64,000 nucleotides of DNA, taken from NCBI GenBank assembly GCA_049515895.1, contig JBEKTQ010000008.1:45241-109240 (forward strand), given 5' to 3'. A program made the position numbers and the translations under genes. Below, in pieces: positions 31,685 through 56,281 of the stretch (position 1 is its first letter; each line of letters begins with the position of its first letter). The notes under the pieces were generated by a model that was not told the origin of the DNA, made no database searches, and worked only from the letters and a program-made list of their open reading frames with translations. The stretch is from Candidatus Bathyarchaeia archaeon. GTDB taxonomy: Archaea; Thermoproteota; Bathyarchaeia; Bathyarchaeales; Bathycorpusculaceae.

Positions 31685-31760
31685 TGGAGCCTAGGAGGGG
31701 AATTGAACCCCTGTAAAATCGCTCTGCAGGCGATTGCTTATGCGACTCGGCCACCTAGGC
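31685..31760 (-). tRNA. tRNA-Cys(GCA) copy 1; CCA encoded; atypical D arm
   Basis: GCCTAGG TG GCCG AGTCGCAT AAGC A ATCGC CTGCAGA GCGAT TTTAC AGGGG TTCAATT CCCCT CCTAGGC T CCA. Confidence 0.88.
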
Positions 31761-31889
31761 TTAGCCTGCCATCAAATCTTTCTCAGTCTTTTATTTAAGC
31801 TTGTTCAGACTACGTTTGCGAAAAGGACAATCTAAATTCATCCAAGAAATTCCAGAAAATTAAATTGTCTCGCCGATTCTTGGGGTTTA

Positions 31890-31918
31890 TGCCAAAAAGC
31901 TGGGGATGGGAATTGAAC
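31890..31918 (-). repeat. att site: duplicated 3' end of tRNA-Cys copy 2
   Basis: TGCCAAAAAGCTGGGGATGGGAATTGAAC vs TGCCAAAGAGCTGGGGATGGGAATTGAAC at 51742-51770 (28/29 identical). Confidence 0.9.
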
Positions 31919-32106
31919 TCTCAGCCAGTGGAGAAATCACCCGCAAAACCCCATTTCTTTTTTTGTGTAAATGAATCTCAAGCTGAAATTATTGTGTATA
32001 AGCTTTTATACCCTGTCCCATGGCGACACCTTTGGCATCTCCCGCACAACCCCTCCTTTTTCTTTAAGCTCATAACTTGACTGAAAACAACGAGGAGACA
32101 TAAACA

Positions 32107-37684: not shown

Positions 37685-37897
37685 TTAGCAGTTGTCGTGA
37701 CTGCAACTGCAGTTTTGACTTGACGAGTTACCGCCGATGTATTTTTGGGGGTTTGCTTCGAAGGATTTTTTGCATCCTGGAGCACAGAAATAGTAGTATT
37801 TGCCTTGGTAGATTGTTTTGTATTTTGCAGTTTTCTCATCAACTTCCATATTACATACTAAATCTTTAGCCATAACTTTTTCACCTCCCACCAACAT
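37685..37897 (-). CDS. YHS-domain metallochaperone
   Basis: KDLVCNMEV, YYFCAPGC, Cys/His tail. Confidence 0.85.
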   Translation of the reverse strand: MLVGGEKVMAKDLVCNMEVDEKTAKYKTIYQGKYYYFCAPGCKKSFEANPQKYIGGNSSSQNCSCSHDNC

Positions 37898-37914: not shown

Positions 37915-40332
37915 TTATATTTTAGGTCTAAATCTCCTAAGGAGTGAAGCGTTGGTAACTACTGTTACTGAGCTGCTTGCCATGGCCGCTGCCGCGTACA
38001 CTGGATTAAATAGCACATGTAAGATGGGGTAGAATGCACCTGCTGCCAAGGGAACGAGGATGATGTTGTAGAAGAATGCCCAGAATAGGTTCTGCCGGAT
38101 TTTCTTCATCGTGGCGCGGCTCAACTGAATAGCTACAACTACATCCCTCAAATCATTCTTAATCAAGACAATGTCCCCTGTTTCAATAGCTACATCTGTT
38201 CCGCTGCCAACAGCAATTCCAATGTTTGCTTGCGCCAAAGCCGGAGCATCGTTTATTCCGTCTCCAACCATAGCAACAACTTTGCCTTCGGATTGCAGCC
38301 GCTTTATCTCGGTGCTTTTTTCACTAGGAAGAACCTCGGAGAACACGCCATTAACACCCAATTGTTTTGCTATAGCGTTGGCTGTTCTTTGATTATCACC
38401 TGTAATCATGATGACCTCCAGGCCCATTTGCTGAAGGGTTTTTACGGCATCACCAGAGTGTTCTTTTAAGGTGTCAGCCACGGCTAATAATCCTGCAAGC
38501 TGAGTGTCAACTGCAAGGAGCATTGCGGTTTTTCCTTCTTCCTCAAGCTCCTTCATTTTAACTTCAAACGAGCCAATGTCAAGGTTGTTTGCTTCCATGA
38601 GTCTGCGGTTGCCTAGCAATATTTTAGTGCCTTTATGCCCTACTTCCACGCCATATCCCGGGAGGGCGTTGAAGATGTCAGGCTCATCAATTTGGAGGCC
38701 TTTCGCTTTTGCCTTTTTTACAATAGCTTCACCAAGTGGGTGCTCAGAGTTTTTCTCTGCGATGCTGGCTAGCTGTAAAAGTTGGTCTTCCTTGAACGCT
38801 TCTGTTGGGATAATATCTGTGACTTCAGGCTCGCCTTTTGTGAGTGTTCCTGTTTTATCAAAAACTACCGTTTGAAGCTTATAAGCCGCTTCCAATGTTT
38901 CGCCGTTTTTAATTAAAATTCCGTTTTCTGCTCCTTTCCCAACCCCAACCATAATGGCCGTGGGGGTAGCAAGTCCAAGAGCGCAGGGACAAGCAACAAT
39001 TAACACAGCGATGAAAACTGTAAGGGCAAAAATGAAGGTCGCGCCAGTTATGAAATACCATGCCAACGCTGAGATCGTGGCAGTTATTATGATAATTGGA
39101 ACAAAATAACCTGACGCGATATCTGCCAGTCTTTGAATAGGTGCTTTGGAACTTAAAGCATCTTCAACCATGCTTATGATCTGGGCAAGAACTGTGTCTT
39201 TGCCGACTTTGGTGGCTTTGAATTTCAGCACCCCAGTTTTATTCATGGTGGCACCCACCACTTGGTCGCCGCTCTTTTTTTCAATGGGGATACTTTCGCC
39301 CGTGATGACTTTCTCATCTACTGCTGAGTAGCCTTCGGTAACGATGCCGTCAACAGGGATTTTTTCTCCTGGTCTAACAACCACAATATCGCCTACTTGG
39401 ACCTCTTCGATAGGGATTTCCTGTTCTAGGCCATTTCTGATTACTCTGGCAGTCTTTGCTTGGAGCCCCATGATTTTTCTGATGGCTTCTGAGGTTCTGC
39501 CTTTTGCTATGGCATCTAAGAGTTTTCCCAGCAAAATGAAGCTCATAATCATTGTAGCTGTATCGAAGAATACTCCTGCGCCTGGAAAGGTGCTTGGTGC
39601 AAAAGTAACTGCGGTGCTGTAGAGCCAAGCGGTGGATGTTCCCATAGCAATTAAGGTATCCATGTTAGTGGTTTTGTTTCTCAAGCCCTTGTATGCGCCT
39701 ACGTAGAAGGTCCATCCGACAATGAATTGTACTGGAGTTGCTAGGATAAACATCAAAATGTTGTTTTGTTCCTTGGGCAAAACGGGGAACCACATCAAGA
39801 GGATGATAGGGATAGTCAATGCAACACTTGCTGTCAAAAGGATTTTTAGCCGTTGAATGTGGCGTTGGCGCTCTTTGCCTTCAGCATCCTGAACGGTTTT
39901 TTCGGGTTCAATGACTTGATATCCAACGTCTTGTACGGTTTTGCTGATTCCAGCGAGGCTTATTTGCTCTGGGTTATATTCAACTGAGACTTTTTCCGTT
40001 GCAAAGTTGACCGTTGCATTATAGACACCCTCTTTGCTGTTTAATGCTTTTTCTATGCTTTGGGCGCAGTTAACGCAGCTCATTCCGCCTACTTGAAGCA
40101 TGATTTTCTCATGGATAACTCGGTATCCTGCTTCAACGACGGTATTTTCTATGGTTTTCTGGTCAACGAGGTCTGGGTTGTATTCTATGATTGCTTTCTC
40201 GGCGGCAAAGTTAACGGTGGCGTGTTTTACGCCATTTAATTTAGAGAGCGCCTTCTCTATGGTAAGTGAGCAGTTTATGCAGCTCATGCCGCCGATGTTA
40301 AGAGTGATTTTTTTGTTTTTTTCTCGGCTCAT
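37915..40332 (-). CDS. copA: Cu(I)-translocating P1B ATPase
   Basis: Two GMSCxxC HMA domains, CPC, DKTGT, GDGIND, YN and MxxSS. Confidence 0.95.
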
Positions 40333-40400
40333 ATATTGTTTGCCTTCACTTGAGTCTTTTTTGCGTTTAACTTGGTCAAGTCCATTTTTAGATAATGCTG

Positions 40401-41381
40401 TCATTCGAGCTGGTAAATATTTCCAACGCTACTGCAAGCAAAGGCATTTGGGAACGTTTGAGCTATCGAGATTATTGCTCGCCATCCCGTGCAATGCGAG
40501 GGTACGATTAATTCAGGATTAATGTCTTTTAGCTCTTCTATCGTAGGTTCAATTCTCTTCTCAAATTCTTTTCCAGCTAAATGAAAGCCGCCCAATATCG
40601 CGTGAACCTTTGTTAATCCGGTAATCTGTTGAGCATATCGTACAGTGTTAATAATGCCAGCGTGAGCACACCCAGAAATGATAACTAAGCCCTTGTCCTT
40701 GATATTAATGACTAAGGCACGGTCATCCAGAACTAACGGATCGGGTAGCCAAGAATTATCACTATAGATTTTATTTTGCATTAAACCCTTTTCAAAAGTC
40801 ACTTTTCTCGGAATTTCTCCGGTGATGCAAACCAAATCATTGGCAATTAAACACGGTTTTTTTGTGTTTACAATTTTTGCTGGAGTTAGCTGTTCTGAAC
40901 TCGGAAAAAGTGGATACTCTCTTATATCTCCGCTAAAACTGGCGGTTCCTCTACGTTTAACCATATCTTCGTGAGTTATTATTGGTAGGTCGATTTTGTT
41001 AACAGCTTCAACTATTGCTTGTAATCCGCCAAAATGATCATAATGACCATGGGAAAGGACAACATAAGAAACTTCGCTTAAGTCAATGCCCATACGCTTA
41101 GCATTTATAACGACTCCGTTAGAACTGATGCCGGTGTCAAAAAGAATTGTGCACGTTTCTTGATTTCGAAAAACTCTAACAAGCATACAAAAACCGTGCT
41201 CTGCAAACGGCAACTCTGTATGCGCCTGAGCCCATTCCGATCCATATTGCTCTTTAGTCCAGTGTCGAAGCGATTGCACTTCTTTTCTAACATTGCTTGA
41301 AAGAAAATCTACATTGTTGTCCACTAAGGAAACAATTTCCAGCTTTGATGCTTCTTTCAAGTCCACGGTTTCTATCGCCAA
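40401..41381 (-). CDS. MBL-fold metallo-hydrolase (COG1237-like)
   Basis: SHGHYDH, GCAHAG, GGFHL, HCTG. Confidence 0.85.
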
Positions 41382-41393
41382 ATACTAACCCAA

Positions 41394-41981
41394 CTATAGA
41401 GTTCCTCGGTAATGTTCTGTGCTTGGGCAGCCAACACATTTTTGAATCTCGTATCGGTTGCATGGGTCGCAATCAACATTGCACGGTGAAACCTTGTTTT
41501 CTTTATGTGCAAGCTGTTCCCTTATCTGAAGGAACGGTGAAAAGTAAGTTTCGCTTACAGGGTAGAATTCTGAACGGCGTATGCCTCTGCTGCATCTGAG
41601 AGAGCATTTTTCCATGGAAATGCTTTCAAGCGTTTCTTCAGTTTCTGCCACCACGAGCGCAATAAGGTTGTAGCCGCCCACTGTTTTGAAAATCTGAACT
41701 ATTCTGGGGCACTGCTCAAACCGTTTTAGGAGTTCCTGCATTGCTTCTGCGCTTTCCATTTCGAGCATTACTATTGCCGGGTGAAGCTTGAGTACGCTTG
41801 GGTTGATTAGAGCTGACACTTTGATTGTGCCTTTTTTTAGTAGTCGCTCTAGTCTTTTCTTGGTTCCCATACTTGTGAAGTTTATGGATTTTGCTAGTTC
41901 TTTCAGGGTCATACGTCCGTCCACTTGAAGTTGTGAGATTATTTTCTTATCGATTTCATCCATTTTGCTCATTTCGGCCAT
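41394..41981 (-). CDS. Lrp/AsnC regulator with Cys-rich C-terminal extension
   Basis: DEIDKKII..LQ.DGR HTH; tail CNVDCDPCNRYEIQKCVGC. Confidence 0.88.
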   Translation of the reverse strand: MAEMSKMDEIDKKIISQLQVDGRMTLKELAKSINFTSMGTKKRLERLLKKGTIKVSALINPSVLKLHPAIVMLEMESAEAMQELLKRFEQCPRIVQIFKTVGGYNLIALVVAETEETLESISMEKCSLRCSRGIRRSEFYPVSETYFSPFLQIREQLAHKENKVSPCNVDCDPCNRYEIQKCVGCPSTEHYRGTL

Positions 41982-41994
41982 TTGACAATCACTT

Positions 41995-42040
41995 GTTTAT
42001 TTTATAAACAAAAAGTATTAATAAGGTTTACGTATTAAAC
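41995..42040. promoter_or_regulatory. Double operator GTTTA-N5-TAAAC flanking TATTAATA (copy 1)
   Basis: GTTTATTTTATAAAC at 41995-42009; TATTAATA at 42016-42023; GTTTACGTATTAAAC at 42026-42040. Confidence 0.85.
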
Positions 42041-42064
42041 TGACTCACATTCCAGCATGGTGAA

Positions 42065-42157
42065 ATGAAAAGTATAATCAATCAAGCTAACACTTCAGAG
42101 CAATGCGAAGCTGAATGCGATTCCTGCCTAAGGAATCAGGACCCTGAAAGGAGGTGA
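42065..42157 (+). CDS. 30-aa micropeptide MKSIINQANTSEQCEAECDSCLRNQDPERR with CxxxCxxC (not in ORF track)
   Basis: GGTGA just upstream; stop overlaps the GGAGGTGA SD of the next gene. Confidence 0.5.
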   Translation: MKSIINQANTSEQCEAECDSCLRNQDPERR

Positions 42158-42161
42158 GTGA

Positions 42162-42539
42162 TTGACAGATAGAGTAGTAGTTCCAGTCGAAGATCAAAAA
42201 GGCTTGGATGCTTGTTTAGCACAGCATTTTGGAAGAGCTCCTTACTATGCAATCGTTGACTTAGACGAAAACGGAAATGTTTCAAACGTTAAAACCGTTC
42301 CAAATACGGGTGAACACTTTGGCGGCACCGCAGATGCTCATAGCCAGCTCTTGGAACTGAAGCCAAACGCAATAGTAGCTTACGGAATGGGACCCCGAGG
42401 ATTAAATAGTTTTCAAAGCGCTGGAATTTCAGTGCTTCAAACAACCGCAAACACAGTTGCTGAAGTGGTTAACGCCTACAAAGAAGATAAGCTCCCAGAC
42501 CTTACAAAAGGCTGCGAACATGCACATCACCACCACTAA
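42162..42539 (+). CDS. NifB/NifX family cluster-binding protein
   Basis: HFGRAPY, GMGPRG, CEHAHHHH tail. Confidence 0.88.
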   Translation: MTDRVVVPVEDQKGLDACLAQHFGRAPYYAIVDLDENGNVSNVKTVPNTGEHFGGTADAHSQLLELKPNAIVAYGMGPRGLNSFQSAGISVLQTTANTVAEVVNAYKEDKLPDLTKGCEHAHHHH

Positions 42540-42622
42540 ATTAGAGAATCGCTTCTAAACCAATTTACTAAAATCTTTCTTTTATTTTACAAATACTCAA
42601 AAGGGAACCATGAGGTCCATAA

Positions 42623-43879
42623 ATGGTCGAAAAAAGGGTAACCCTTAAAAAAGGCGAGGATGCAGCAAGACTTTCCACTATTGTTGTTCTAGTGCTCAGT
42701 ATTCTGAGAGGCATTGTTTCCGTCGCAAGTGGCAGCGTTGCGCTTTTGGCAGGCACAATCGACTCATTCTCGGATGTTTTTTCTTCTGCAGCCGTTTGGG
42801 CAGGTCTTAATATTGCCAAGAAGAAACCGACCGAGAGGTTTCCTTATGGATACTTTAAGGCAGAAACTTTTGCTTTGCTAATAGTAGCCTTGATACTTAT
42901 GGCTTCCAGCGTTTTGATTATCTGGGAGTCTTTTCAGAAGTTGTTTGAGGTATATGTTATCTCATTTTCCAACGTCGCGCTAGGAATTGCAGCCTTCTCA
43001 GCGGTCGTTTATTATCTGCTTGGCAAATTCAAGGGCAGAGTGGGACGCCAGATTGGTTCCCAGGCTCTGATAAGTGAGGGTATGCATTCTATGGTTGATG
43101 TCTACGCTTCTTTATTGGTTTTTGTCGGCGTTTTTCTTGGAGTACTCGGTTTTCACTTCGGTGAGGCCCTTATTGGCTTCATTATTGGTGTCTATGTTCT
43201 AATCAGGGGCTTACTTTTCGGAAAAGACGCAGCGTTGGTCTTGATGGATGTTTCGCCAAACCCGCAAATGGTTAACAAAATGAAAGCGATAGCTGAAAGT
43301 GTTCCCGGAGTTAGAGGGAGCCACGATATTAGAATGAGAAAATCTGGACCCGTGTTTTTCGGGGAAATGCATATCGAACTACAAGAGGGTCTTTCTTTAG
43401 AAAGAGCCCATGTGATATCAGAGGATGTAGAGACAAGAATCAAGGAAAATTTCAAAGACATTGAATTAGTAACCGTTCACGTAGGGCTTGCGCATAAGAA
43501 AAAAATTCTAATTGCGACTCCTATAATGGAAGACAAAGGATTGGACTCGCTAACTAGTACCCATTTTGGCAGTGCTCCTTACTTTGGCTTCACACAGGTT
43601 GAAGAAAGTCAAGTATTAAGCTTCTATGTTAAGGAGAATAAAGGAGCAAAGTTACAGCACAAAAAGGGGATACAGGCCGCAGATTTATTGGTTGAAGAGA
43701 AAGTAGACGTTTTACTCACGGTAGACGTTGGCGAAGGTCCCTTCCACGTTCTGGGAAATAACTTGATACAGATTTATCAAATTCAAAGACCCCTTAAAAT
43801 CCGTGAAGCAGTAAATCTTTTTAGTGAACGTTCGTTGGAAAAACTAGTAGCACCGACCGAGGAGGATACGACTGAATAA
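42623..43879 (+). CDS. CDF cation transporter fused to a NifX-like domain
   Basis: DSFSD, FPYGY.K.E, HSMVD; C-terminal HFGSAPYF. Confidence 0.88.
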   Translation: MVEKRVTLKKGEDAARLSTIVVLVLSILRGIVSVASGSVALLAGTIDSFSDVFSSAAVWAGLNIAKKKPTERFPYGYFKAETFALLIVALILMASSVLIIWESFQKLFEVYVISFSNVALGIAAFSAVVYYLLGKFKGRVGRQIGSQALISEGMHSMVDVYASLLVFVGVFLGVLGFHFGEALIGFIIGVYVLIRGLLFGKDAALVLMDVSPNPQMVNKMKAIAESVPGVRGSHDIRMRKSGPVFFGEMHIELQEGLSLERAHVISEDVETRIKENFKDIELVTVHVGLAHKKKILIATPIMEDKGLDSLTSTHFGSAPYFGFTQVEESQVLSFYVKENKGAKLQHKKGIQAADLLVEEKVDVLLTVDVGEGPFHVLGNNLIQIYQIQRPLKIREAVNLFSERSLEKLVAPTEEDTTE

Positions 43880-44025
43880 ATGTTAATCTTTTGTCTTATC
43901 CTGACGAAGTTCAATTATGGAGCTTTTAGTTTCAGGATCATTTATTTCGCCACTTAACATTCAACAAAAAATGATTTTAGTCAGGGTTTAAAAAAAGAAT
44001 TTGGTAACATCTTTTATATTAATTG

Positions 44026-44071
44026 GTTTATTTTATAAACGCAAGATATTAATATCGTTTAGCAATTAAAC
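44026..44071 (+). promoter_or_regulatory. Double operator flanking TATA (copy 2) upstream of cdhA
   Basis: GTTTATTTTATAAAC at 44026-44040; TATTAATA at 44047-44054; GTTTAGCAATTAAAC at 44057-44071. Confidence 0.85.
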
Positions 44072-44093
44072 TACCTTCCAATGAGGGTTTAAC

Positions 44094-46442
44094 TTGACAA
44101 GCAAAAATGTACATTTAAAAATTGGCGAACTTAACACTAACATTGGTCAAGTAAAGAATTTAGAATTATCCGTTGGAAGAATTATTAACGATTCATGGGA
44201 AGAGCAGATGGGACCAACTCCAATGCCTGGTCTAACAACCTTGCGGAGTTGGGACATGAAACTTCTTAACAAATACAGACCATTCTACATGCCTGATTGC
44301 GACGTCTGCTGTTTATGCACTTATGGTAAGTGTGATTTGACGGCAGGGAAACGTGGAGCCTGTGGACTGGATATGGCCGCGCAGTCATCCCGCATAGTTC
44401 TTTTAGCTTGCAGTATAGGCGCGGCAACCCACACTGGTCACGCTCGACATGTAGTTGATCACTTAATCGAGAAATATGGTCGACGGTATCCATTAGATGT
44501 AGGTGGATTAAACGTTAAAGTAGAAGCTCCAGTTATCAGGCTTGTTACCGGAATAAAACCTGAAACTCTCGGTGACTTAGACGAAGTTTTGGAATATTGC
44601 GAGAAGCAAATTACTCATTTACTATCTGTTGCACACACTGGTCAAGAAGCAAATAACTTGGATTTTGAATCTAAGGCATTACATGCAGGGAGAATCGACC
44701 AAGTAGGCATGGAAGTTGCAGATGTTGCTCAAATCTCAACACTAAATTTTCCAAAAGCTGATCCCGAAGCACCGCTCATTAAAATGGGAATCGGATCAGT
44801 TGACATAACCAAACCTGTTATCATGTGCATCGGTCACAATGTTGTTCCCTCGGTTGGAATTATCGATTACATGAAAGAAAGCAAGCTGGATGATAAGATG
44901 GAAGTCGTGGGGCTATGTTGCACCGCCTTCGACAACACCCGATATTACGATAGGGCAAAAATCGTTGGTCCAATCTCTTGGCAATTAAGATTCATACGCG
45001 GCGGATTTGCAGACGTAGTTGTACTCGATGAGCAATGCGTCCGCACCGACTGCTATGACGAAGCTCAAAAAGTCCGTGCTCCGGTAATCGCTGCCTCGGA
45101 AAAGAACTGCGTCGGCTTCCAGGATCGCACAAACGATCCAGCCGATGAAATCGTCGCCGACCTCGTAAGCGGAAAAGTTGCTGGTGTATTGATTCTTAAT
45201 CCAGAAAAAGTCGGTGAAGTAGCAGTTAAAGTTGCAAAGCAAATTGCCCCTATTCGCAAGAAGATGAAAAATCTTCCAAGTTTGGATGAAATTAAACAAA
45301 TAGCCAAAACATGCAGACAATGCAACCTTTGCCAAAGAAGTTGTCCACAAGACCTCAAAATTCCTCCAGCTCTAAAGGCAGCAGCCGAAGGAAACATCGG
45401 GCCACTAACAGAATTATATGAAGAATGCATCGGATGCGGACGCTGTGAAGAAGCATGCCCACAAAAAATCATGATCCACAGCCTCATCGTTAAAGCAGGC
45501 GAAAAATTCATGCTATCAGAATCTAACTTATGCCGTGCAGGCAGAGGAGCAGTGCAAGACATAGAAATACGCACTGTCGGTAGCCCAATCGTTTTAGGTG
45601 AAATCCCGGGCATACTTGCAGTTGTTGGCTGCGCCAATTACCCTCATGGCGGCAGAGACGTATACGAAATATGCAGAGAATTTGCCAATCGACGCTTGAT
45701 CGTTGTAACATCAGGATGCTCAGCCATGTCTGCAGGCAGTTACCGAAATAACGAAGGTAAAACACTTTACGAGGAATTTCCAGGCGGCTTCGAGGCTGGA
45801 GGAGTTCTTAACGTTGGTTCATGTGTTGCAAATAGCCATATTGCAGGCGCAGCCATAAAAGTCGCTAGCATCTTTGCAAAGAGAAACCTGAGAGGTAACT
45901 ACGAGGAAATCGCTGATTATATTCACAACCGCGTCGGTGCAGTGGGCTTAGCATGGGGTGCATACTCACAGAAAGCTGCATCAATCGCATCAGGTTTCTG
46001 GAGTCTAGGCGTTCCAGTTCTTGTTGGGCCTCATGGGAGTAAATACCGTCGTATGCTTTTGGGCAGAGAAGACAAACCCGAAGGCTGGGAAGTCTATGAT
46101 GCACGCACAGGCGACAAAGTTAACGTTGGTCCAGCACCTGAACACTTGTTCCAAACGGTTGAAACACCACAAGAAGCAATGGTGTATATCGCAAAACTAT
46201 GCATCAGACCAAATGATACATGGAAGGGACGCAGCATAAAGCTAAGCCACTATATTGACCTGCACAAACGTTACTATGGATGCATGCCCAAAGACTTGCA
46301 CTTGTTCGTTAGAACAATGGCTGACGTACCAATGACCATGAAAGATGAATTCGCTAAGATCCTTGAAGCTCATGACTGGAAAGAAACAGTAATTCCGGAC
46401 CCAACTTTGCTTCCAAGAATGGTCCGTAAAATGAAGGAGTGA
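44094..46442 (+). CDS. cdhA: ACDS/CO dehydrogenase alpha subunit
   Basis: CDVCCLCTYGKC, CIGHN, GLCCT, DEQC, two ferredoxin motifs, GSCVANSH. Confidence 0.96.
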   Translation: MTSKNVHLKIGELNTNIGQVKNLELSVGRIINDSWEEQMGPTPMPGLTTLRSWDMKLLNKYRPFYMPDCDVCCLCTYGKCDLTAGKRGACGLDMAAQSSRIVLLACSIGAATHTGHARHVVDHLIEKYGRRYPLDVGGLNVKVEAPVIRLVTGIKPETLGDLDEVLEYCEKQITHLLSVAHTGQEANNLDFESKALHAGRIDQVGMEVADVAQISTLNFPKADPEAPLIKMGIGSVDITKPVIMCIGHNVVPSVGIIDYMKESKLDDKMEVVGLCCTAFDNTRYYDRAKIVGPISWQLRFIRGGFADVVVLDEQCVRTDCYDEAQKVRAPVIAASEKNCVGFQDRTNDPADEIVADLVSGKVAGVLILNPEKVGEVAVKVAKQIAPIRKKMKNLPSLDEIKQIAKTCRQCNLCQRSCPQDLKIPPALKAAAEGNIGPLTELYEECIGCGRCEEACPQKIMIHSLIVKAGEKFMLSESNLCRAGRGAVQDIEIRTVGSPIVLGEIPGILAVVGCANYPHGGRDVYEICREFANRRLIVVTSGCSAMSAGSYRNNEGKTLYEEFPGGFEAGGVLNVGSCVANSHIAGAAIKVASIFAKRNLRGNYEEIADYIHNRVGAVGLAWGAYSQKAASIASGFWSLGVPVLVGPHGSKYRRMLLGREDKPEGWEVYDARTGDKVNVGPAPEHLFQTVETPQEAMVYIAKLCIRPNDTWKGRSIKLSHYIDLHKRYYGCMPKDLHLFVRTMADVPMTMKDEFAKILEAHDWKETVIPDPTLLPRMVRKMKE

Positions 46443-46448
46443 TAAGAT

Positions 46449-47018
46449 ATGTCATGTGAACCTTGGCAATGTGCAGAAATAGCCGCAACTAAAAAAGCAA
46501 ACCCAATTCAAAAACCTGAGATAGCAGTAGCAATGATCAAAAAAGCCCAACGTCCCCTTCTCATTGTGGGAAGCAACGCAACTGAAAGGTACATGGAAGG
46601 CAAACAATTAATCGAATACCTAATCGACTTCGCTAACGCCTCCAAAGTACCGATTGTAGCCACAGCTCACATGGTTGGCGAATTCCTAAAGCGCGGCTAC
46701 CAACCAGCAGATTTCATGCCCGCAACGGATATCGGCAATAGGCTTGTAGACCCAGACTGGCAAGGGATCGATGGAAATGGACACCCTGACTTGGTGTTAT
46801 TCGTCGGACTGCCATATTATATGGAAGCTTTAATCTTATCCGGTCTAAAGCACTTTGCACCAAACCTCAAAACCATGACCATAGACAACTTATATCATCC
46901 GCATGCAAGCTGGTCTTTCCCAAATGCAACTCTCGAGGAATGGGCCTCAAATCTCAAAGTCATAACCTCAAAGTTCGAAGAAGCGTCCGAAAACATTTTG
47001 AAAAGCTCGCTAAGGTAA
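46449..47018 (+). CDS. cdhB: ACDS/CO dehydrogenase epsilon subunit
   Basis: KKAQRPLLIVG, DPDWQGIDG.G..DL, LKHFAP, HPHA.WSF.N. Confidence 0.93.
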   Translation: MSCEPWQCAEIAATKKANPIQKPEIAVAMIKKAQRPLLIVGSNATERYMEGKQLIEYLIDFANASKVPIVATAHMVGEFLKRGYQPADFMPATDIGNRLVDPDWQGIDGNGHPDLVLFVGLPYYMEALILSGLKHFAPNLKTMTIDNLYHPHASWSFPNATLEEWASNLKVITSKFEEASENILKSSLR

Positions 47019-47259
47019 AAGTGGAGTGTGTGAATTAGCGCAATCGCTACTCGACGATATGAACTTAGCTCGACTGGTGCTGATTGCCACAAAACCTTGG
47101 AAAAGAAATTTTTAATTCCCCCTTTATCTTTAAAACAAAATTTTATCGGATAAAAAGCATGTGCAAATCCTTTTGCGATCTGCAATTTGTGGCCAGACAA
47201 CAGCAATTGCTATTTAAATTAAACATAAAGAAACTTTAAGGAAGGCGCTATTGCAAAGT

Positions 47260-47305
47260 GTTTACTTTATAAACAAAACCTATTAATAGCGTTTACGCAC
47301 CAAAC
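47260..47305 (+). promoter_or_regulatory. Double operator flanking TATA (copy 3) upstream of the OsmC gene
   Basis: GTTTACTTTATAAAC at 47260-47274; TATTAATA at 47281-47288; GTTTACGCACCAAAC at 47291-47305. Confidence 0.85.
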
Positions 47306-47347
47306 ATTATAGTCAACTAAACACGAAAAGAACAGAAATAAATTGAA

Positions 47348-47776
47348 TTGGTGAGTAAAATGCCAAAAATTAAAGCAAAAGCAACATGGGTTGAAAATGT
47401 GCGTTCAAAGGTTGATAATCAAAGAAACCATAGCGTAGAATGTGATCTCTCGACTGCTGCAGGCGGAACTGATTGTGGTCCAACCGCGGTTGAACTTAGT
47501 TTAATGGCGCTAGCCGATTGCGGAGTTACAATTTTCGCGGATGTTTGCAAAAAAAGCAACATAAAATTGACCAAGGTTGAAGTAATTGCCGAAGCCGATA
47601 AATCTCCGGATTCGCCGATTATTAGCGGCGTTACCATGAAGGTCAACGCTTCCTCAAACGCTAGAAAAGAACTGCTGGAGGCAGCATGGCGAAGAACCGA
47701 AGCAAACTGTCCGGTTTTGTACATTTTCAAAGACCCAATTCCCGTAAAAGTTGAATTCGAAGGAAAATCAGAATAA
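47348..47776 (+). CDS. OsmC family protein
   Basis: GGTD.GPT..EL...LA.C and CPV. Confidence 0.87.
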   Translation: MVSKMPKIKAKATWVENVRSKVDNQRNHSVECDLSTAAGGTDCGPTAVELSLMALADCGVTIFADVCKKSNIKLTKVEVIAEADKSPDSPIISGVTMKVNASSNARKELLEAAWRRTEANCPVLYIFKDPIPVKVEFEGKSE

Positions 47777-47819
47777 ACATCTGATTTTGCTTATTCAAGA
47801 AAAAATGGGAGGTGATTCA

Positions 47820-48104
47820 GTGTTATTTGAGGCAACACATAAACACAAAGCGTCTCAGTGCCCACTGCTGACATCTGAAGGCAAAGGCATGCTCAAAAAA
47901 CTGTTTTCCGAAGAGAACGCCAAGAACGCAGGGGTCAAAATAGTCGCGGGCTACATGAGCTGCCCGAAAGACACAGCGGATGATCACAAAGGTTTCTTCA
48001 CGTTAGAGGCGGACACCCCTAATGCAGTTTCAAAATTTTTCGGTCAGATGGCTGTTGAAGTGAGGCCAGTTCAACCCTTGAGCGAAGTTGCAAAAAATCT
48101 ATAA
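47820..48104 (+). CDS. Small alpha/beta protein with HxH...CP motif
   Basis: GGAGGTGA SD before GTG 47820; HKHKASQCP, H.GFF..EAD. Confidence 0.65.
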   Translation: MLFEATHKHKASQCPLLTSEGKGMLKKLFSEENAKNAGVKIVAGYMSCPKDTADDHKGFFTLEADTPNAVSKFFGQMAVEVRPVQPLSEVAKNL

Positions 48105-50530: not shown

Positions 50531-51709
50531 ATGGTCCGGCTAGCTGACCGTAAAATGTCTAGTTTCGCCCCCGCCCCCTTTTGCCCCGAATGCAGATCAA
50601 CAAAGCTCTTTAGGGACGGTTTTCGTACTCTTAAAAATGCTATTAAAGTTCAGCGTTGGCTCTGCAGAGAATGTGGTTACAGATTTAGCAAGCCTTTACG
50701 CTTACGAAAAATTCAGCAACGGCGGTTAAATACGGCAGATGCTCTACAGTTTAGCAACCAAATATGCGCGTTAGAGGCGAAAAATTTGGAACCGCAAACA
50801 GAAATCAATACTGTTGCGGGTGAAAATCTCCAAGACAACAAAGGCAAAATCATTGAATTCGCTTGGTGGATGAAAAAACAAGGCTACAAGGAAGGCACTG
50901 TTGTATGCAGGTCAAAACTCCTTAAAGTCATGGTGAAAAGAGGTGCAAACCTGTATGATCCCGAAACAATCAAAGACGTTATTGCGAAACAAACCTGGTC
51001 TGAAGGCAGAAAAGAAAACGCAGTAAACGCTTACTCCACATTTCTAAAAATGATAGGAGGAACATGGAGCCCACCCATCTACGGAAGAATACAAAAACTC
51101 CCCTTCATACCAAAAGAAGAAGAAATTGACGCACTAATAGCAAGCTGCGCACCAAAAGCGGCAACACTACTTCAAACCCTTAAGGAAACAGCGGCCAGAG
51201 TTGGAGAAGCATGGGCGCTTCAGTGGACAGATGTTGACATTGAAAATAGAACGCTAAGAATTACACCAGAAAAAGGAAGCAATCCTCGTATATTCAAAAT
51301 TAGTCCGAAACTGATGTCAATGCTGTTAGCACTGCCACGTAAAGGCAACTGCATATTCGGAAGCTACCCTCTTCGCGGCTACAGAACGTGCTTTACAAGG
51401 CAACGCAAAAAAGCTGCGAGGAAGCTGGGGAATCCACGCTTGCTACAGATAACATTTCACACCTTTAGACATTGGAAGGCCACAATGGAATACCACAAAA
51501 CCAAAGACATCCTTTACGTAATGAAACTATTAGGGCATAAGAGCATTAAGAACACTTTGATCTACACACAACTGATAGAATTTGATGACAACGATCAATT
51601 TGTCTGCAAAGTTGCCAAGACTGTTAAAGAAGCCAGCGAACTAATAGAAAGCGGCTTTGAGTATGTCTGTGCAATGGACGACGCCAAGCTATTTAAAAAA
51701 CGTAAATAA
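50531..51709 (+). CDS. Tyrosine recombinase/integrase with N-terminal Zn ribbon
   Basis: AARVGE (R), EKGS (K), HTFRH, LLGH, IY catalytic set; ends 40 bp from the tRNA 3' end. Confidence 0.93.
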   Translation: MVRLADRKMSSFAPAPFCPECRSTKLFRDGFRTLKNAIKVQRWLCRECGYRFSKPLRLRKIQQRRLNTADALQFSNQICALEAKNLEPQTEINTVAGENLQDNKGKIIEFAWWMKKQGYKEGTVVCRSKLLKVMVKRGANLYDPETIKDVIAKQTWSEGRKENAVNAYSTFLKMIGGTWSPPIYGRIQKLPFIPKEEEIDALIASCAPKAATLLQTLKETAARVGEAWALQWTDVDIENRTLRITPEKGSNPRIFKISPKLMSMLLALPRKGNCIFGSYPLRGYRTCFTRQRKKAARKLGNPRLLQITFHTFRHWKATMEYHKTKDILYVMKLLGHKSIKNTLIYTQLIEFDDNDQFVCKVAKTVKEASELIESGFEYVCAMDDAKLFKKRK

Positions 51710-51749
51710 ACTGAAGTTATCCGCCGAGAAGCTGAGGATTCTGCCAAAG

Positions 51750-51822
51750 AGCTGGGGATGGGAATTGAACCCACATATAACAGCTCTGCAGGCTGTCGCC
51801 TGAACCGTTCGGCCACCCCAGC
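51750..51822 (-). tRNA. tRNA-Cys(GCA) copy 2 (integration target; CCA not encoded)
   Basis: GCTGGGG TG GCCG AACGGTTC AGGC G ACAGC CTGCAGA GCTGT TATAT GTGGG TTCAATT CCCAT CCCCAGC T. Confidence 0.93.
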
Positions 51823-51986
51823 ACAGAATTCTAGGGTTGTGTCCCTCATAAAAATATTGGGGGCTTCGTTTTTTTGTTTGTGCAGTTTTGCGCTTGATGC
51901 GTACGCTTTATTTCAGATATAACGTTGTTATAAAGATTGCTAAACCCTTAAATAATTTTTGACTCTTGTATTTTTCCCGTGTAAGA

Positions 51987-53411
51987 ATGACCGAACCACC
52001 GAAAATAATTCTTTTTAACACTTTAACCCGCAGAAAAGAACCCTTCATGCCGTTGGAGACAGGCAAAGTGAAAATTTACACCTGCGGACCCACAGTTTAC
52101 GATTACGCGCATATCGGGAATTTTCGTGCTTTCCTTTTTGAGGATTTGCTGAAACGTTGGCTTATGCAGCGGGGTTTCAAGGTTACGCATGTGATGAACC
52201 TCACTGACGTGGATGACAAGACCATTAAGGGCAGCCAAAAGCAGGGCTTGCCGCTTAGGCAGTTCACAGGCTTTTACATCAAAGCTTTCTTTGAAGACCT
52301 CAAAGCCCTGAACATTCAGCCAGCTGACGTCTACCCACGAGCCACCGACAATATACCAGAAATGGTCACGTTAATCAAGACCCTAATAGTTAAAGGCTAC
52401 GCGTACCGAAGCGAAGACGCCTCAATCTACTACGCCATCAACAAGTTCCCAGACTATGGTAAGCTTTCAAAACTGAAATCTGTCGAACTTAGAGCCGGCG
52501 CACGAGTCAGTCAAGACGAATACGCAAAGGAAGAAGCGCAAGATTTCGCGTTATGGAAAGCCTGGACGCCTCAAGACGGTGACACCCACTGGGAAACAGA
52601 ACTTGGCAAAGGCAGACCCGGCTGGCATGTCGAATGCTCAGCGATGTCTATGAAATATCTTGGCGAAACCTTCGATATCCACTGCGGCGGCGTAGACAAC
52701 ATCTTCCCGCATCACGAGAACGAGATTGCGCAGAGCGAAGCGGCAACAGGCAAGAAGTTTGTCAACTATTGGCTGCACAACGAGCATTTGCAGGTTGAAG
52801 GCAAAAAAATGTCCAAAAGCTTCGGCAACTACTACACGCTCCGCGACCTTCTTGCCAAAGATTGCGACCCAATTGCGATTCATTTCTTGCTGATGTCTGT
52901 GCATTATCGGCAGCAGTTCAACTTCACCTTTGAAGCCTTGGAATCTGCGAAAAGCGCAGTGAGCAGGCTACGCAACTTTGTGCGACGACTACATGAGGTC
53001 GACGACGGCAAGGACAGCAAGGGGAAAGTCGCCACCCTATCCGAGAAGATGGAAGCCCGCTTTGGCCGCTCAATGGATGATGACCTCGACATCGGAACAG
53101 CGGTCGCGTCGCTGTTTGATTTCGTGCGGGAAATAAACAATCTGCTTGATGAGAACATGGTGAGTAAGCAGGAGGCATCGGACGTTGGCGGTCTAATGAT
53201 GCGGGTGGATGAGGTTTTAGGTGTCATAGGCAAAGTGGAAGGTGAAGAAGAGCTATCGACGGACATTGACGCCTTGGTGCAGAAGCGGGAACAAGCGCGG
53301 AAAGCGAAGAACTGGAAAGAATCCGACGCCATAAGAGCGCAACTGAAAGCAATGGGCATAATGCTTGAAGATACGGCTCAAGGCGTAAAGTGGCACAAAG
53401 AAAAAGCTTAA
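51987..53411 (+). CDS. cysS: Cysteine--tRNA ligase
   Basis: CGPTVY, HIGN, PGWHVEC, FPHHENE, KMSKS. Confidence 0.97.
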   Translation: MTEPPKIILFNTLTRRKEPFMPLETGKVKIYTCGPTVYDYAHIGNFRAFLFEDLLKRWLMQRGFKVTHVMNLTDVDDKTIKGSQKQGLPLRQFTGFYIKAFFEDLKALNIQPADVYPRATDNIPEMVTLIKTLIVKGYAYRSEDASIYYAINKFPDYGKLSKLKSVELRAGARVSQDEYAKEEAQDFALWKAWTPQDGDTHWETELGKGRPGWHVECSAMSMKYLGETFDIHCGGVDNIFPHHENEIAQSEAATGKKFVNYWLHNEHLQVEGKKMSKSFGNYYTLRDLLAKDCDPIAIHFLLMSVHYRQQFNFTFEALESAKSAVSRLRNFVRRLHEVDDGKDSKGKVATLSEKMEARFGRSMDDDLDIGTAVASLFDFVREINNLLDENMVSKQEASDVGGLMMRVDEVLGVIGKVEGEEELSTDIDALVQKREQARKAKNWKESDAIRAQLKAMGIMLEDTAQGVKWHKEKA

Positions 53412-53438
53412 CGTCCTGCCATGGAACCCTATGATGCT

Positions 53439-54596
53439 TCAGACGCCGTATTTACTTAAAATTTCTTTAAACGCATTAACGACTTTCTTCAAATCGTCTT
53501 CTTTCAGCATGAACGTCGACATCTTGAAGTTTTTCGTCAATCCAGGCTTAATGCCCACTATCCCCCTCTCTTTTAAATCAGAATGCAGGAAATAACCTCG
53601 TTTAGGATGAGTCTGCGAGATTTCAAAGAACTTAGCCGACTCAACAAACATCAGGTCATGATTATGCGGTTTTTCACCCAACTGCTTAAGCCCCAAATTT
53701 TCAATTTCGCCAGAGAACCATCTTGCTTTCTTGACTTCCTCTGGCCAATTCTTAACTCTTTCAGCTACATATGGAAAGCTAGCCATCAGAGTTATCAATG
53801 AAGCGCCTCTTGCGGTGCAACCTAAGAGCTCCACTTCTTTGACTTTGTAAAACTTAGACCGACGCAGGATTTTTCCTTCGTACTCCTTCTTCAATCCTAA
53901 GACGCCAACGGGTCCACAAGCCGACATGCTTTTGTGCCCGGAGCCAACAATGAAATCACAACCCAGTTCTCGCACCGAGATGGGCATTCTTCCGATGCCG
54001 TAGGCGGCGTTAACCAAAAATGGGATGCCATATTGATGCGAGATTTCAGCGACCCGTTTTGCGTCGACCAAGTTCCCGTAGGCGCCATCCGGGTACGTCA
54101 AGAGAGTTAGGGTTGGGAGTTTGCCTGTGTTTTTCTTGACTTCTTCTATTGCCTCAATGTATTTTTCAGGGTCAATCTTGAATTCAGGGTATCCGCTGTT
54201 AAGAACCTCCTGCACATTCAGATGGTTTCTTTCCAAGGCAACGTAAGTTGTGTAGTGCGCATTTTTGTCTATTACAACTGTGTCGCCGGGACTGCACATG
54301 GAATGCATAACCGTGTCGATTCCTTCCCTTGCGCCGTTTGTTACTCTTGCAATGTCAACTTCTAGAAATTTAGGTAAAATGCAATAAACGAAATCGTAAA
54401 TTGGCGGGTTCTTTATTTGATCGAGCCTTCCGCCGCAGAAGTCGCATACAGAGTAGCCGTCGCCCCAATTCTGCAGCGCCACTTTGGATTCTGGATAGAG
54501 TTTGCCGCCTGTCTGCAGTGGATCAACGTTGATAAAGCCTTCTCTTTCACGGCACAAATTCTTCAGTATAGAAGTGTCAAGAGATTCAGTAGTCAT
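53439..54596 (-). CDS. pscS: Sep-tRNA:Cys-tRNA synthase (SepCysS)
   Basis: INVDPLQTGG, GYSVCDFC, GAREG, SGHKS (PLP Lys), LLGCT. Confidence 0.95.
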   Translation of the reverse strand: MTTESLDTSILKNLCREREGFINVDPLQTGGKLYPESKVALQNWGDGYSVCDFCGGRLDQIKNPPIYDFVYCILPKFLEVDIARVTNGAREGIDTVMHSMCSPGDTVVIDKNAHYTTYVALERNHLNVQEVLNSGYPEFKIDPEKYIEAIEEVKKNTGKLPTLTLLTYPDGAYGNLVDAKRVAEISHQYGIPFLVNAAYGIGRMPISVRELGCDFIVGSGHKSMSACGPVGVLGLKKEYEGKILRRSKFYKVKEVELLGCTARGASLITLMASFPYVAERVKNWPEEVKKARWFSGEIENLGLKQLGEKPHNHDLMFVESAKFFEISQTHPKRGYFLHSDLKERGIVGIKPGLTKNFKMSTFMLKEDDLKKVVNAFKEILSKYGV

Positions 54597-54688
54597 ATAA
54601 TCATCATTAGCTAACTTGTTAGGAATGCTTTTATAATTATCTCCATTCATAGGTTTTTGAAGATTAGAGTAAAAACCTCTTAACTTAG

Positions 54689-56281
54689 TTGAGAATCAAA
54701 GTTGGGATTTGTTTGGTAAAATTTAATGTTCACAAAATCAAGAAGGATGCTGAACTGGACTACGAAAAGACCTGGCTAGAAACAGCCAACTTGCTGAAGC
54801 AGGAAGGACGCTACTTCAACCTGCAAAACAAAAGAAAAGAAAACGACCTAGTAAGCCTCATTTTCAAGGTGAGAAACACCCTTTTAGACATAGGCTTCAC
54901 TGAAGCCATCGTACCCGTCATAATTGAAAAAGGCGAAGTCTATCTTCAGTATGGTCCTGAAGCGCCAGTGATTTTGGACAGAATATTTTTCTTGGCTGGC
55001 CTCGACAGACCCGATATAGGTGTCAGCGAGAAGAGGATTGAAGAAATCAAAAAAATAGTTCCCAGCTTCAAAGATATAGAAAAGCTGCAAGGAATCTTCC
55101 GGAAATACAAGAAAGGCAAGATTGCCTCGGATGACTTAGTGGAAAGAATGGTTAACGAATTGAAGATTAAGGAGGAGCAGGCGACAAGGCTACTTAACGA
55201 GGTTTTTAAGGAACTGAAGGATCTGCAGCCTTTGCCTCTGAGCATGACGTTAAGGAGCCACACGACGGCGGGTTGGTTCGGTGTCTTGCAAGAGTACCAA
55301 AACAGGGAGCCTTTGCCGATACAGTTGTTCTCGATTGGACCGAAATATAGACGGGAGCAGAAGCTTGATGCAACCCACCTTTACGATTCACAAACTGCTT
55401 CGATTGTAATAATGGCTGACGAGTTCAGCGTGGAAGACGGACTCGAGGTCGTTAGGCAAATATTTGCGAAACTTGGATTTGAAAAAGTCAGCTTCACCAG
55501 AAAAACTGCAACATCCAAGTATTATGCCCCGCAGACAGAATACGAGATTTTCGTTAAGCACCCACACATGGAAAAAATGCTGGAAATAGGAGACGCTGGA
55601 TTCTACAGCCCAGTTCCCCTCAGCAAATACAAGATTACCCATCCCGTGTGGAACTTCGGCTTCGGGCTTGAAAGAATGCTTATGATCCTTTCTGGCGAAA
55701 ACGACATAAGAAAAGTCGTTTACCCATACATGTATCAGACCAAGATGTTCAGTTCTCAAGAAGTAGCCAACTCTATAAAAATGATAGATACCCCCAAATC
55801 GAACGAAGGCAAAAACCTAGCAAACCTCATTTACGAAACTGCAGTGAAACATGCGAATGATCCCACCCCAGCAAAAGTAACAGCTTTTGACGGGAAAATC
55901 ATGAACAAGAAACTGATAGTAAAAATAGTCAAGAATGAAGAGAAAAAACGGCTTCTCGGACCTGCGGCTCTCAACCCAATTGTGGTGAAAGATTCTAACA
56001 TCATCGGGGCAATGCCGAACAAAATTCCTGAGGACGCCCTAAAGACTCCTTACAGCTACATGATGGGACTGGCAAACAAGGCAGCCTACGAAATAGAGCA
56101 AGCCGCCGCAAAAGGCGAAAAGGAAGTCGTGGTGGAAGCAAAGATGATTCGAAGTCTGACGGATGTGAACATGGAGATTGACGACGCGATTAGAAGATTC
56201 CTGCGTTCAAACAAGAAGACGATAAACGTGATCGGGCCCATGTTCGTCTGGGTCACCGCAAAAATCGAAGACCACAATTAG
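54689..56281 (+). CDS. sepS: O-phosphoserine--tRNA(Cys) ligase (SepRS); start may be near 54713
   Basis: QYGPEA..ILDR.F.LAGL.RPD.G, LRSHTTAGWF, RREQ..D.THL, GLERM, L.GPA..N. Confidence 0.95.
   Translation: MRIKVGICLVKFNVHKIKKDAELDYEKTWLETANLLKQEGRYFNLQNKRKENDLVSLIFKVRNTLLDIGFTEAIVPVIIEKGEVYLQYGPEAPVILDRIFFLAGLDRPDIGVSEKRIEEIKKIVPSFKDIEKLQGIFRKYKKGKIASDDLVERMVNELKIKEEQATRLLNEVFKELKDLQPLPLSMTLRSHTTAGWFGVLQEYQNREPLPIQLFSIGPKYRREQKLDATHLYDSQTASIVIMADEFSVEDGLEVVRQIFAKLGFEKVSFTRKTATSKYYAPQTEYEIFVKHPHMEKMLEIGDAGFYSPVPLSKYKITHPVWNFGFGLERMLMILSGENDIRKVVYPYMYQTKMFSSQEVANSIKMIDTPKSNEGKNLANLIYETAVKHANDPTPAKVTAFDGKIMNKKLIVKIVKNEEKKRLLGPAALNPIVVKDSNIIGAMPNKIPEDALKTPYSYMMGLANKAAYEIEQAAAKGEKEVVVEAKMIRSLTDVNMEIDDAIRRFLRSNKKTINVIGPMFVWVTAKIEDHN

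Follow-up and report, generated by a model that had tools for sequence, protein, structure and literature searches.

Which protein reads a promoter layout that occurs three times in one bathyarchaeal locus, which genes does it govern, and to what signal might it respond? The locus lies in a 64,000-nucleotide stretch of a Candidatus Bathyarchaeia archaeon genome (GCA_049515895.1, contig JBEKTQ010000008.1, positions 45,241 to 109,240 of the forward strand), which we call the window and whose own numbering we use. Beside the first of the three promoters is a gene for an Lrp/AsnC-type regulator with a cysteine-rich C-terminal tail, and comparison across genomes points to this protein as the binder of the paired palindromes, or boxes, that define the layout. 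Bathyarchaeia are abundant and essentially uncultured, and hardly any studies of how they regulate their genes are known to us; a literature search turned up none.

Three promoters share one double-box layout

All three intergenic regions carry the same series of elements: the inverted repeat GTTTA-N5-TAAAC (box 1), 6 bp, the palindrome TATTAATA, 2 bp, and GTTTA-N5-(T/C)AAAC (box 2). The sites and the adjacent regulator gene are:

41394..41981, minus strand: Lrp/AsnC-type regulator with a C-terminal five-cysteine tail and an invariant Cys91
41995..42040, plus strand: composite site 1, separating the nifX operon from the divergent operon of the regulator
41995-42009: box 1 of site 1, GTTTATTTTATAAAC, then an A-rich 6-bp spacer, AAAAAG
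42016-42023: central palindrome of site 1, TATTAATA, then 2 bp, AG
42026-42040: box 2 of site 1, GTTTACGTATTAAAC
44026..44071, plus strand: composite site 2, layout as in site 1, 22 nt upstream of the cdhA TTG start (44094)
47260..47305, plus strand: composite site 3, layout as in site 1, upstream of the OsmC gene

Box starts are 31 bp apart in 3 of 3 sites, and box 2 of site 3, GTTTACGCACCAAAC, has one mismatch. An earlier sequence-only reading of this DNA had described just this shared architecture, with the same spacing and one mismatch in the last box, and the sequence bears it out. That reading also called the promoters identical, which is too strong: the architecture is what they have in common, and over 61 nt copy 1 shares 75% of its positions with copy 2 and 67% with copy 3. 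A Shine-Dalgarno (SD)-like GAGGG (44083-44087) stands between site 2 and the cdhA start.

The composite pattern, with up to three mismatches, matched three times in the window and 0 times in each of 100 shuffles; single boxes with at most one mismatch gave 9 matches against a shuffle mean of 3.23, and 2 of the 100 shuffles reached 9. The whole genome (53 contigs, 3,184,081 b) holds 19 exact single boxes, five of them in these promoters, and nowhere in its 3.18 Mb except at the three window sites do two boxes stand 31 bp apart with three or fewer mismatches in total. The motif is therefore not a generic promoter element, an objection that the sequence-only reading had raised against itself.

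When 42 unique sites were compared, the half-sites, a TTTTA centre in box 1 and two A's of the spacer were kept, with ~0.1-0.3 bits in the flanks; the box-1 centre and spacer A's had been left free in the pattern used to collect the sites, while the half-sites and TATTAATA were fixed in the pattern used for the congener and species-wide scans, so that their conservation is partly circular and counts for less in favour of our reading. A search upstream of regulator orthologues used single boxes only and gives the unbiased view of conservation.

Boxes at 34068 and 34188 were rejected as promoters, as they lie inside 120-nt coding repeats of a PQQ beta-propeller gene. This gene (33565-34312) contains five such direct repeats, with 60-72% identity. 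In another genome (L070), a composite site lies upstream of the gene for a related 832-aa propeller.

The boxes accompany the neighbouring regulator

A homology search with the regulator returned 1601 proteins. The best 120 of these 1601 are 79-96% identical, and the few of them that carry an organism label are labelled Bathyarchaeota or Bathyarchaeia. Its distribution is patchy (20 of 36 congeners; 81 of 301 genomes and 41 of 107 genera of the class), and it most likely belongs to a Bathyarchaeia-specific Lrp/AsnC subfamily.

Upstream DNA was available for 28 orthologous loci, and in 22 of these both boxes, each with at most one mismatch, lay directly upstream of the regulator gene, in the order box 2, TATTAATA, box 1, 9-19 nt with an SD-like GTGA or GGTG, start codon. 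Three of the remaining loci had one box and three had none; all but one of the seven most divergent regulators belong to these six loci (49-57% identity, with one at 74%).

Among the 36 congeners, where counts of co-occurrence overstate the support and so flatter our reading because kin genomes are not independent samples, regulator and site occurred together in 19, the regulator only in one, the site only in two and neither in 14. In the regulator-only genome the gene is cut at a contig end; of the two site-only genomes, one has the regulator in frameshifted pieces and the other a two-mismatch site on a 2.9-kb contig. With two mismatches allowed, the composite pattern matched in 24 of 61 related genomes, the source genome included, and the reversed pattern used as a control matched in 0 of the 61.

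We also scanned one genome for each of 185,579 prokaryotic species with the exact pattern and obtained at least 128 matching stretches. The 80 sites in other genomes among the matches listed had Bathyarchaeia-type titles, with a few older or broader archaeal labels and one Nanoarchaeia label. At 61 of these 80 listed sites the regulator is divergent on the box-1 side; the polarity is therefore fixed. Among 20 more distant homologues (34-45% identity), 10 had a perfect 5-N5-5 palindrome no more than 60 nt from their start, with half-sites specific to their clade (GTTAC..GTAAC, GTTAA..TTAAC), and several of them keep the succession of box, AT-rich TATA-like element and box.

Placement at 22 of 28 loci, co-occurrence, polarity and covariation of the half-sites, all of them comparative evidence, together indicate that the neighbouring Lrp very probably binds the boxes, as the sequence-only reading had proposed. 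That another factor binds them, or that they form a lineage-specific core-promoter cassette spreading with these genes, is highly improbable: their presence and absence follow the regulator, box 1 always adjoins the regulator gene, half-sites vary with its clade, and palindrome size and spacing fit Lrp dimers. These points outweigh, in our judgement, the copying of the cassette as a whole, TATA included, before unrelated cargo, and the scarcity of TATTAATA in the genome (41 copies observed, about 118 expected), by which the unit behaves as one module.

In a distant clade, four loci (L245, L246, L247, L248) have perfect GTTAC-N5-GTAAC or GCTAC-N5-GTAGC palindromes 5 nt from a ATATATATA-like element and may represent a second regulon of the same design. 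An ArsP permease and thioredoxin pair adjoins the regulator relative in two of the four (L245, L248).

The regulator is an Lrp/AsnC protein with a conserved cysteine tail

Residues 7-54 of the regulator match AsnC-type helix-turn-helix (HTH) families in Pfam (PF13404, 40.3 bits against a cut-off of 27; PF13412, 45.9 bits against 21.9), and by sequence the RAM domain (PF01037) reaches 23 bits, below its cut-off of 25. The AF2 model of the protein (pLDDT 90.2) matched FL11 in a Foldseek search (2cyy, E 4e-10, TMt 0.80) and aligned over ~145 columns to FL11, PH0061, PH0140 and LrpA (TMt 0.80-0.86, E 4e-10 to 1e-7). As modelled, it is a true member of the Lrp/AsnC family with the RAM-like fold intact. 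Translation may start at Met7 (ATG at 41963), since most orthologues are 189 aa long.

The tail reads C-x3-C-x2-C-x7-C-x2-C, the same spacing that the sequence-only reading had given. Its cysteines (C167, C171, C174, C182, C185) and C91, which lies inside the RAM domain, are invariant in 29 sequences of 25-93% identity. The six invariant cysteines are enough in number for the iron-sulfur-cluster sensor class, in which at least three or four conserved ligating cysteines are expected; such a set is necessary, not sufficient. The tail is rare (58 representatives in 1.84 billion) and hardly occurs outside Lrp-type proteins (14 of 16 carriers checked have an AsnC HTH).

Two proteins, P0132 and P0144 (454 and 455 aa), have an N-terminal KaiC-like ATPase fused ahead of the Lrp HTH and cysteine tail. 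The source genome also encodes a paralogue on another contig (C38:5015-5560; L002:1447-2052), 29% identical and with the same five-cysteine tail, between a fasciclin gene and a SOUL haem-binding gene with ABC genes nearby; no obvious GTTTA-type double box was found upstream of it.

Core targets are most likely iron-sulfur carrier genes

Gene content around the regulator was read, using Pfam, from 20 loci fetched from 15 genomes. In the relatives, MBL and regulator genes stand on one side of the site and, on the other, genes for Mrp/NBP35 (a NUBPL-type ParA protein), two NifX-like proteins, an IscU-like NifU_N protein, two MinD-like ATPases (CbiA with Fer4 inserts) and CDF-NifX, the CDF transporter being a frequent target. 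Further sites in relatives precede a NifX-OsmC-flavodoxin unit, and occasional ones a bacterial-type S-adenosylmethionine (SAM) synthetase, the 94-aa protein described below, a PQQ propeller or cdhAB.

We then scored the first gene on the box-2 side at the 80 sites among the matches listed. It was NifX-like at 38, Mrp/NBP35 at 23, MetK at 6, CdhA at 3, OsmC at 1 and the 94-aa protein at 1, with 8 lacking an identification. From this distribution, the ancestral core of the regulon most likely consists of orange-protein-like iron-sulfur carrier genes, plus OsmC and flavodoxin. CO dehydrogenase (CODH) is occasional cargo and not the core, because cdhA follows only 3 of the 80 listed sites. The sequence-only reading had proposed a regulon of CODH, metal handling and peroxide defence; sites do precede nifX, cdhA and OsmC in the window, which apparently brings them under common control, but the centring on CODH does not stand.

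The genes flanking the sites in the window are:

37685..37897, minus strand: YHS-domain small metal-binding protein (Pfam), last gene of the leftward unit
37915..40404, minus strand: CopA-type P1B ATPase with two HMA domains (Pfam), overlapping the MBL stop by 4 nt
40401..41381, minus strand: MBL-fold hydrolase (Pfam), conserved partner downstream of the regulator
42065..42157, plus strand: 30-codon open reading frame (ORF), MKSIINQANTSEQCEAECDSC..., aligned by eye with cysteine-rich Mrp N-termini such as MASTIKQKKTNECTEECDSCNTSDQCND...
42162..42539, plus strand: NifX-like (Nitro_FeMo-Co, 'Di-Nase') single-domain protein (Pfam, 57.7 bits)
42623..43879, plus strand: CDF cation-efflux transporter fused to a NifX-like domain (Pfam)
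44094..46442, plus strand: CdhA, alpha subunit of CODH/acetyl-CoA synthase, extra copy (TIGR00314, 1152.8 bits)
46449..47018, plus strand: CdhB, epsilon subunit (Pfam, NCBIfam)
47348..47776, plus strand: OsmC-like peroxiredoxin (Pfam), orthologues of 138 aa
47820..48104, plus strand: 94-aa conserved small protein, start GTG at 47820 behind GGAGGTGA

These calls agree with those made earlier from the sequence (Lrp/AsnC, MBL, CopA and YHS leftwards; NifX-like, CDF-NifX, CdhA, CdhB and OsmC rightwards), apart from a supposed micropeptide ahead of NifX. Judged by its by-eye match to the Mrp N-termini that follow the site in relatives, this 30-codon ORF appears instead to be the N-terminal remnant of a deleted mrp/NBP35 gene. 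The best NCBIfam matches of CDF-NifX (FieF, MamB, MamM) are weak and all far below their cut-offs. The likely start of OsmC is ATG 47360, behind GGTGA. No Pfam or NCBIfam family matched the 94-aa protein; homologues, also of 94 aa, exist in relatives, one of them with its own composite site upstream.

The leftward unit of regulator, MBL, CopA and YHS genes is tightly packed, and the 4-nt overlap is why copA is probably in the same operon as the MBL gene. An MBL gene adjoins 16 of the 19 regulator genes in the 20 fetched loci; in the Atlas this partner fell only into generic 'MBL fold metallo-hydrolase' clusters. By comparison, copA follows 3 of these 19 regulator genes and not the other 16; in one truncated locus it comes directly after the regulator.

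Compared with its relatives, the copy in the window has lost mrp, one NifX gene, IscU and both ATPases. A search of the genome at a query coverage of at least 50% gave no genes like those for Orp3 and Orp4. The full composition resembling the orange protein (ORP) system occurs in relatives (e.g. L068, L070, L076), and the window has part of it, namely NifX, CDF-NifX and the mrp stump.

A second, complete cdhABCDE set lies on contig C29, its CdhA 82% identical to that of the window; the promoter of this housekeeping operon and six cdh operons in relatives had no boxes. Complete cdhABCDE operons share a ~100-nt upstream sequence across genomes, TTTTTACACAATTTTTC ... GGAAAGGTTTAAAAAG ... TAAACCTTTACAGAGGTT, present at C29:21780-22033 of the source genome (G000), at L073:10250-10486 and in L069, L078, L080, L082 and L083. 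This sequence bears no relation to the double box and might act as a regulatory element in its own right or as the leader of the acetyl-CoA synthase operon. The bacterial-type SAM synthetase gene, metK, lies directly behind the regulator-proximal site in several relatives (L068:8476-9655, L079:6558-7799); one genome has it broken into two ORFs, and another retains the 5' stump alone.

A model for one TATA box clamped between two operators

The overall account that we propose, from operator binding through repression and an iron-sulfur or redox signal to a trimmed regulon on an island, we regard as reasonably probable. The regulator would recognise the 15-bp palindrome GTTTA-N5-TAAAC, and two of its dimers, or one higher oligomer, would occupy both boxes three helical turns apart. 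Judging from its place between them, the palindromic TATTAATA is most likely the TATA box. At the regulator locus this single element would serve both directions, with box 1 between it and the regulator-MBL(-copA-YHS) operon and box 2 between it and the target operon. The predicted transcription starts, ~25-27 nt to either side of the middle of TATTAATA, would fall at box 1's outer edge in one direction and ~5 nt past box 2 in the other, and leaders of 9-48 nt with SD-like motifs would follow them. Occupied boxes would exclude TFB or RNA polymerase, giving autorepression together with repression of the targets; because a box stands between TATA and start on each side, repression seems the likelier effect of occupancy. 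Damage to iron-sulfur clusters, or their shortage, would release it. On the island, the same promoter cassette would have been placed before an extra cdhAB pair and OsmC.

There is precedent for parts of this scheme. Centre-to-centre spacings of two or three helical turns occur among archaeal Lrp sites, autoregulation is common, and LrpA blocks RNA polymerase (PMC2995911). Some points weigh against the model. The centre of box 1, TTTATAAA, is itself TATA-like, and the true TATA box and transcription starts could therefore differ from those proposed. Lrp-type proteins bound just upstream of BRE (B recognition element)/TATA can activate, as Ptr2 and CopR do (PMC7830388, PMC2995911), so that repression is not assured.

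Iron-sulfur or redox status is a candidate signal

We put iron-sulfur or redox status at just short of an even chance as what the regulator senses. The invariant cysteines, the iron-sulfur carrier targets, OsmC, flavodoxin and the neighbours of distant family members are why we favour it. These neighbours include peroxiredoxin with cupin, VIT1, CDF, DtxR-FeoA and OsmC genes, and also TauE with a PF04060 iron-sulfur protein and thioredoxin with ArsP. In the Mrp N-terminus, C-x3-C-x2-C-x5-C, the first three cysteines are spaced as in the regulator tail, a resemblance and not a test; Nbp35 proteins hold a stable [4Fe-4S] cluster in their N-terminal extension (PMC6345978). The fullest version of this idea, in which the protein is the founding iron-sulfur-sensing Lrp, with a [4Fe-4S] six-cysteine module, a shared clamped TATA box and a portable cassette that wires in new cargo, is speculative, and we are inclined to doubt it.

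Several results count against an iron-sulfur sensor. The last ~65 residues of the regulator matched no Pfam or NCBIfam family; Foldseek with the full model covered the Lrp part alone and left the tail without a matching solved fold, and for a tail-only model (pLDDT 80.8) neither Foldseek (E<=10) nor VIA (Z>=2) returned a match. A phmmer search against solved structures likewise covered residues 7-127 only, with the tail unmatched. Since the tail matches no family or solved fold, the cysteines would suit a structural zinc site or a direct metal sensor equally well. The presence of copA and YHS genes in the regulator's operon, here and in 3 of 19 cases elsewhere, points to copper.

One alternative, which we consider unlikely, is accordingly a direct metal-ion sensor of the kind of archaeal CopR. 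The ligand of its tail would be Cu(I), or else Zn, Ni or Fe(II), and binding of the metal would induce efflux (CopA, CDF) as well as the protection of iron-sulfur proteins. Besides the copA linkage, the CDF transporter is often a target, and CopR of Pyrococcus furiosus is an Lrp-family protein with a C-terminal cysteine-rich metal domain encoded beside copA (PMC7830388). The role also appears vacant, as the source genome had 0 matches to PF08394 (TRASH), which was found in 3 of 14 control genomes. The tail itself is not a TRASH domain (no Pfam match on the regulator at E<=0.01), copA linkage is confined to a minority of loci, and the conserved targets are iron-sulfur carrier genes. The cysteine spacing of the tail, C-x3-C-x2-C-x7-C-x2-C, also differs from the TRASH pattern.

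Alternatively, the cysteines might form a metal-free thiol-disulfide switch, or a structural zinc knot in a protein whose RAM domain binds a small-molecule effector. The tail reaches pLDDT 85-92 in the full-length model without any cofactor, the RAM-like fold is intact among the top matches (~145 columns, TMt 0.80-0.86), and classical Lrp effectors are amino acids (PMC2995911). Six invariant cysteines, one of them inside the RAM domain, are more than a simple zinc knuckle needs, and the neighbouring genes concern mostly iron-sulfur clusters, iron and peroxide and not amino-acid metabolism; we judge this reading quite unlikely.

The unit lies on an integrative element at tRNA-Cys

The sequence-only reading had called the unit mobile, and for this window we agree. 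The features that define the element are:

31881..31923, no strand assigned: left attachment repeat, a partial copy of the tRNA-Cys 3' end plus flank, 37 of 43 positions identical to 51733-51775
50531..51709, plus strand: tyrosine-recombinase integrase (Phage_integrase, 63.9 bits)
51749..51822, minus strand: tRNA-Cys(GCA), the integration target, whose 3' end forms the right attachment repeat 51733-51775

The repeats are 19,852 bp apart from start to start, and G+C is 0.40-0.45 inside the element against 0.49-0.52 in the trp/valS region to its left. An integrase abutting tRNA-Cys, with a far repeat of the tRNA 3' end, is the pattern expected of integration; that the unit lies on a ~19.85-kb element integrated at tRNA-Cys is thus well supported, the mobility applying to this window only. 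No clean empty site was found in 11 loci from relatives, in which flanking synteny is not kept; one of the 11 has tRNA-Cys beside cysS, with upstream DNA that matches neither flank. No related integrase was found near the regulon in the 20 fetched loci from other genomes.

To the left of the left repeat, at a distance of 137 nt, stands another tRNA-Cys, different from the target. The two tRNA-Cys(GCA) genes of the window (31685-31760 and 51749-51822) are 71% identical. Congeners carry several partial copies of the 3' half of the target tRNA-Cys (51749-51822) close together on single contigs, which suggests that tRNA-Cys is a recurrent integration hotspot. Right after the target tRNA-Cys, cysS (CysRS), SepCysS and SepRS genes lie side by side (51966-56281), so that direct and indirect routes to Cys-tRNA appear to be encoded in one place.

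What the regulon adds

A full-text literature search, with subscription-only papers outside its scope, gave no description of the regulator, of the operator or of any archaeal regulator of ORP-like clusters, which agrees with the earlier view of an undescribed regulon. What is new is the definition of the operator, together with half-sites that vary by clade and a portable promoter cassette carried by an integrative element; in sum, the regulator belongs to a known family but has a new putative sensor module, its operator design is unusually clean and its regulon is defined. Metal-sensing Lrp proteins are already known, and the finding is less surprising to that extent than the sequence-only reading implied.

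Genes for orange-protein-like iron-sulfur carriers thereby gain both a candidate regulator and a candidate for the physiological signal; the ORP system of Desulfovibrio is described only as 'putatively involved in cell division' (PMC6345978). The island copy illustrates how foreign cargo may be drawn into an established regulon by a promoter cassette. A cysteine module that held a cluster would be a new type of sensor for the Lrp family, and an Lrp that senses iron-sulfur status would be an archaeal counterpart of IscR or SufR for an orange-protein-type carrier system. The promoter would offer a simple model for gating one TATA box in both directions. The regulator-operator pair is sharp enough for a test with one recombinant protein and three short DNA fragments.

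Comparison with known systems

In bacterial IscR and SufR, a cysteine-ligated cluster reports iron-sulfur status, and the protein controls assembly or carrier genes as well as its own. The likeness to the present system is in the proposed logic alone; the protein family is unrelated and the cluster here is hypothetical.

On the target side, the closest counterpart is the ORP cluster of Desulfovibrio vulgaris (Orp3/4/5/8/9, MrpORP), which has the same composition as the targets in relatives (PMC6345978): common to both are Mrp/NBP35, a single-domain 'Di-Nase' NifX-like protein and paired MinD-like ATPases with two ferredoxin motifs. MrpORP transfers iron-sulfur clusters to Orp3 and Orp4, and the ORP operons have a sigma-54-dependent promoter (PMC6345978), whereas the candidate here is an Lrp-type factor. 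Unlike in ORP, Mrp and the NifX-like domain are separate genes here.

With classical archaeal Lrp proteins (LrpA, FL11, Ss-LrpB, Ptr2) the regulator shares its modelled fold, palindromes two or three turns apart and, by prediction, autoregulation and repression as described for LrpA (PMC2995911). It differs from them in a C-terminal module of ~45-65 residues with five cysteines and in the invariant cysteine of the RAM domain, in targets outside amino-acid metabolism and in a TATA box placed exactly between the two sites.

The closest known kind is CopR, a copper regulator of the Lrp family that ends in a TRASH domain and is known from Pyrococcus furiosus and Saccharolobus. Both proteins combine an Lrp/AsnC-type N-terminal HTH with a cysteine-rich C-terminal extension as the presumed sensor. 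CopR is encoded next to copA (PMC7830388), a linkage that the present regulator shows in this window and in 3 of 19 regulator genes elsewhere. Binding of its own divergent promoter, predicted here, would be a further likeness; octamer wrapping has been proposed for CopR (PMC7830388). The present regulator has no TRASH domain and hence is not a CopR. Its operators are two sharp palindromes around one TATA box, whereas CopR has a semi-palindromic motif within a weakly conserved extended region (PMC7830388), and its core targets are iron-sulfur carrier genes, not copper genes.

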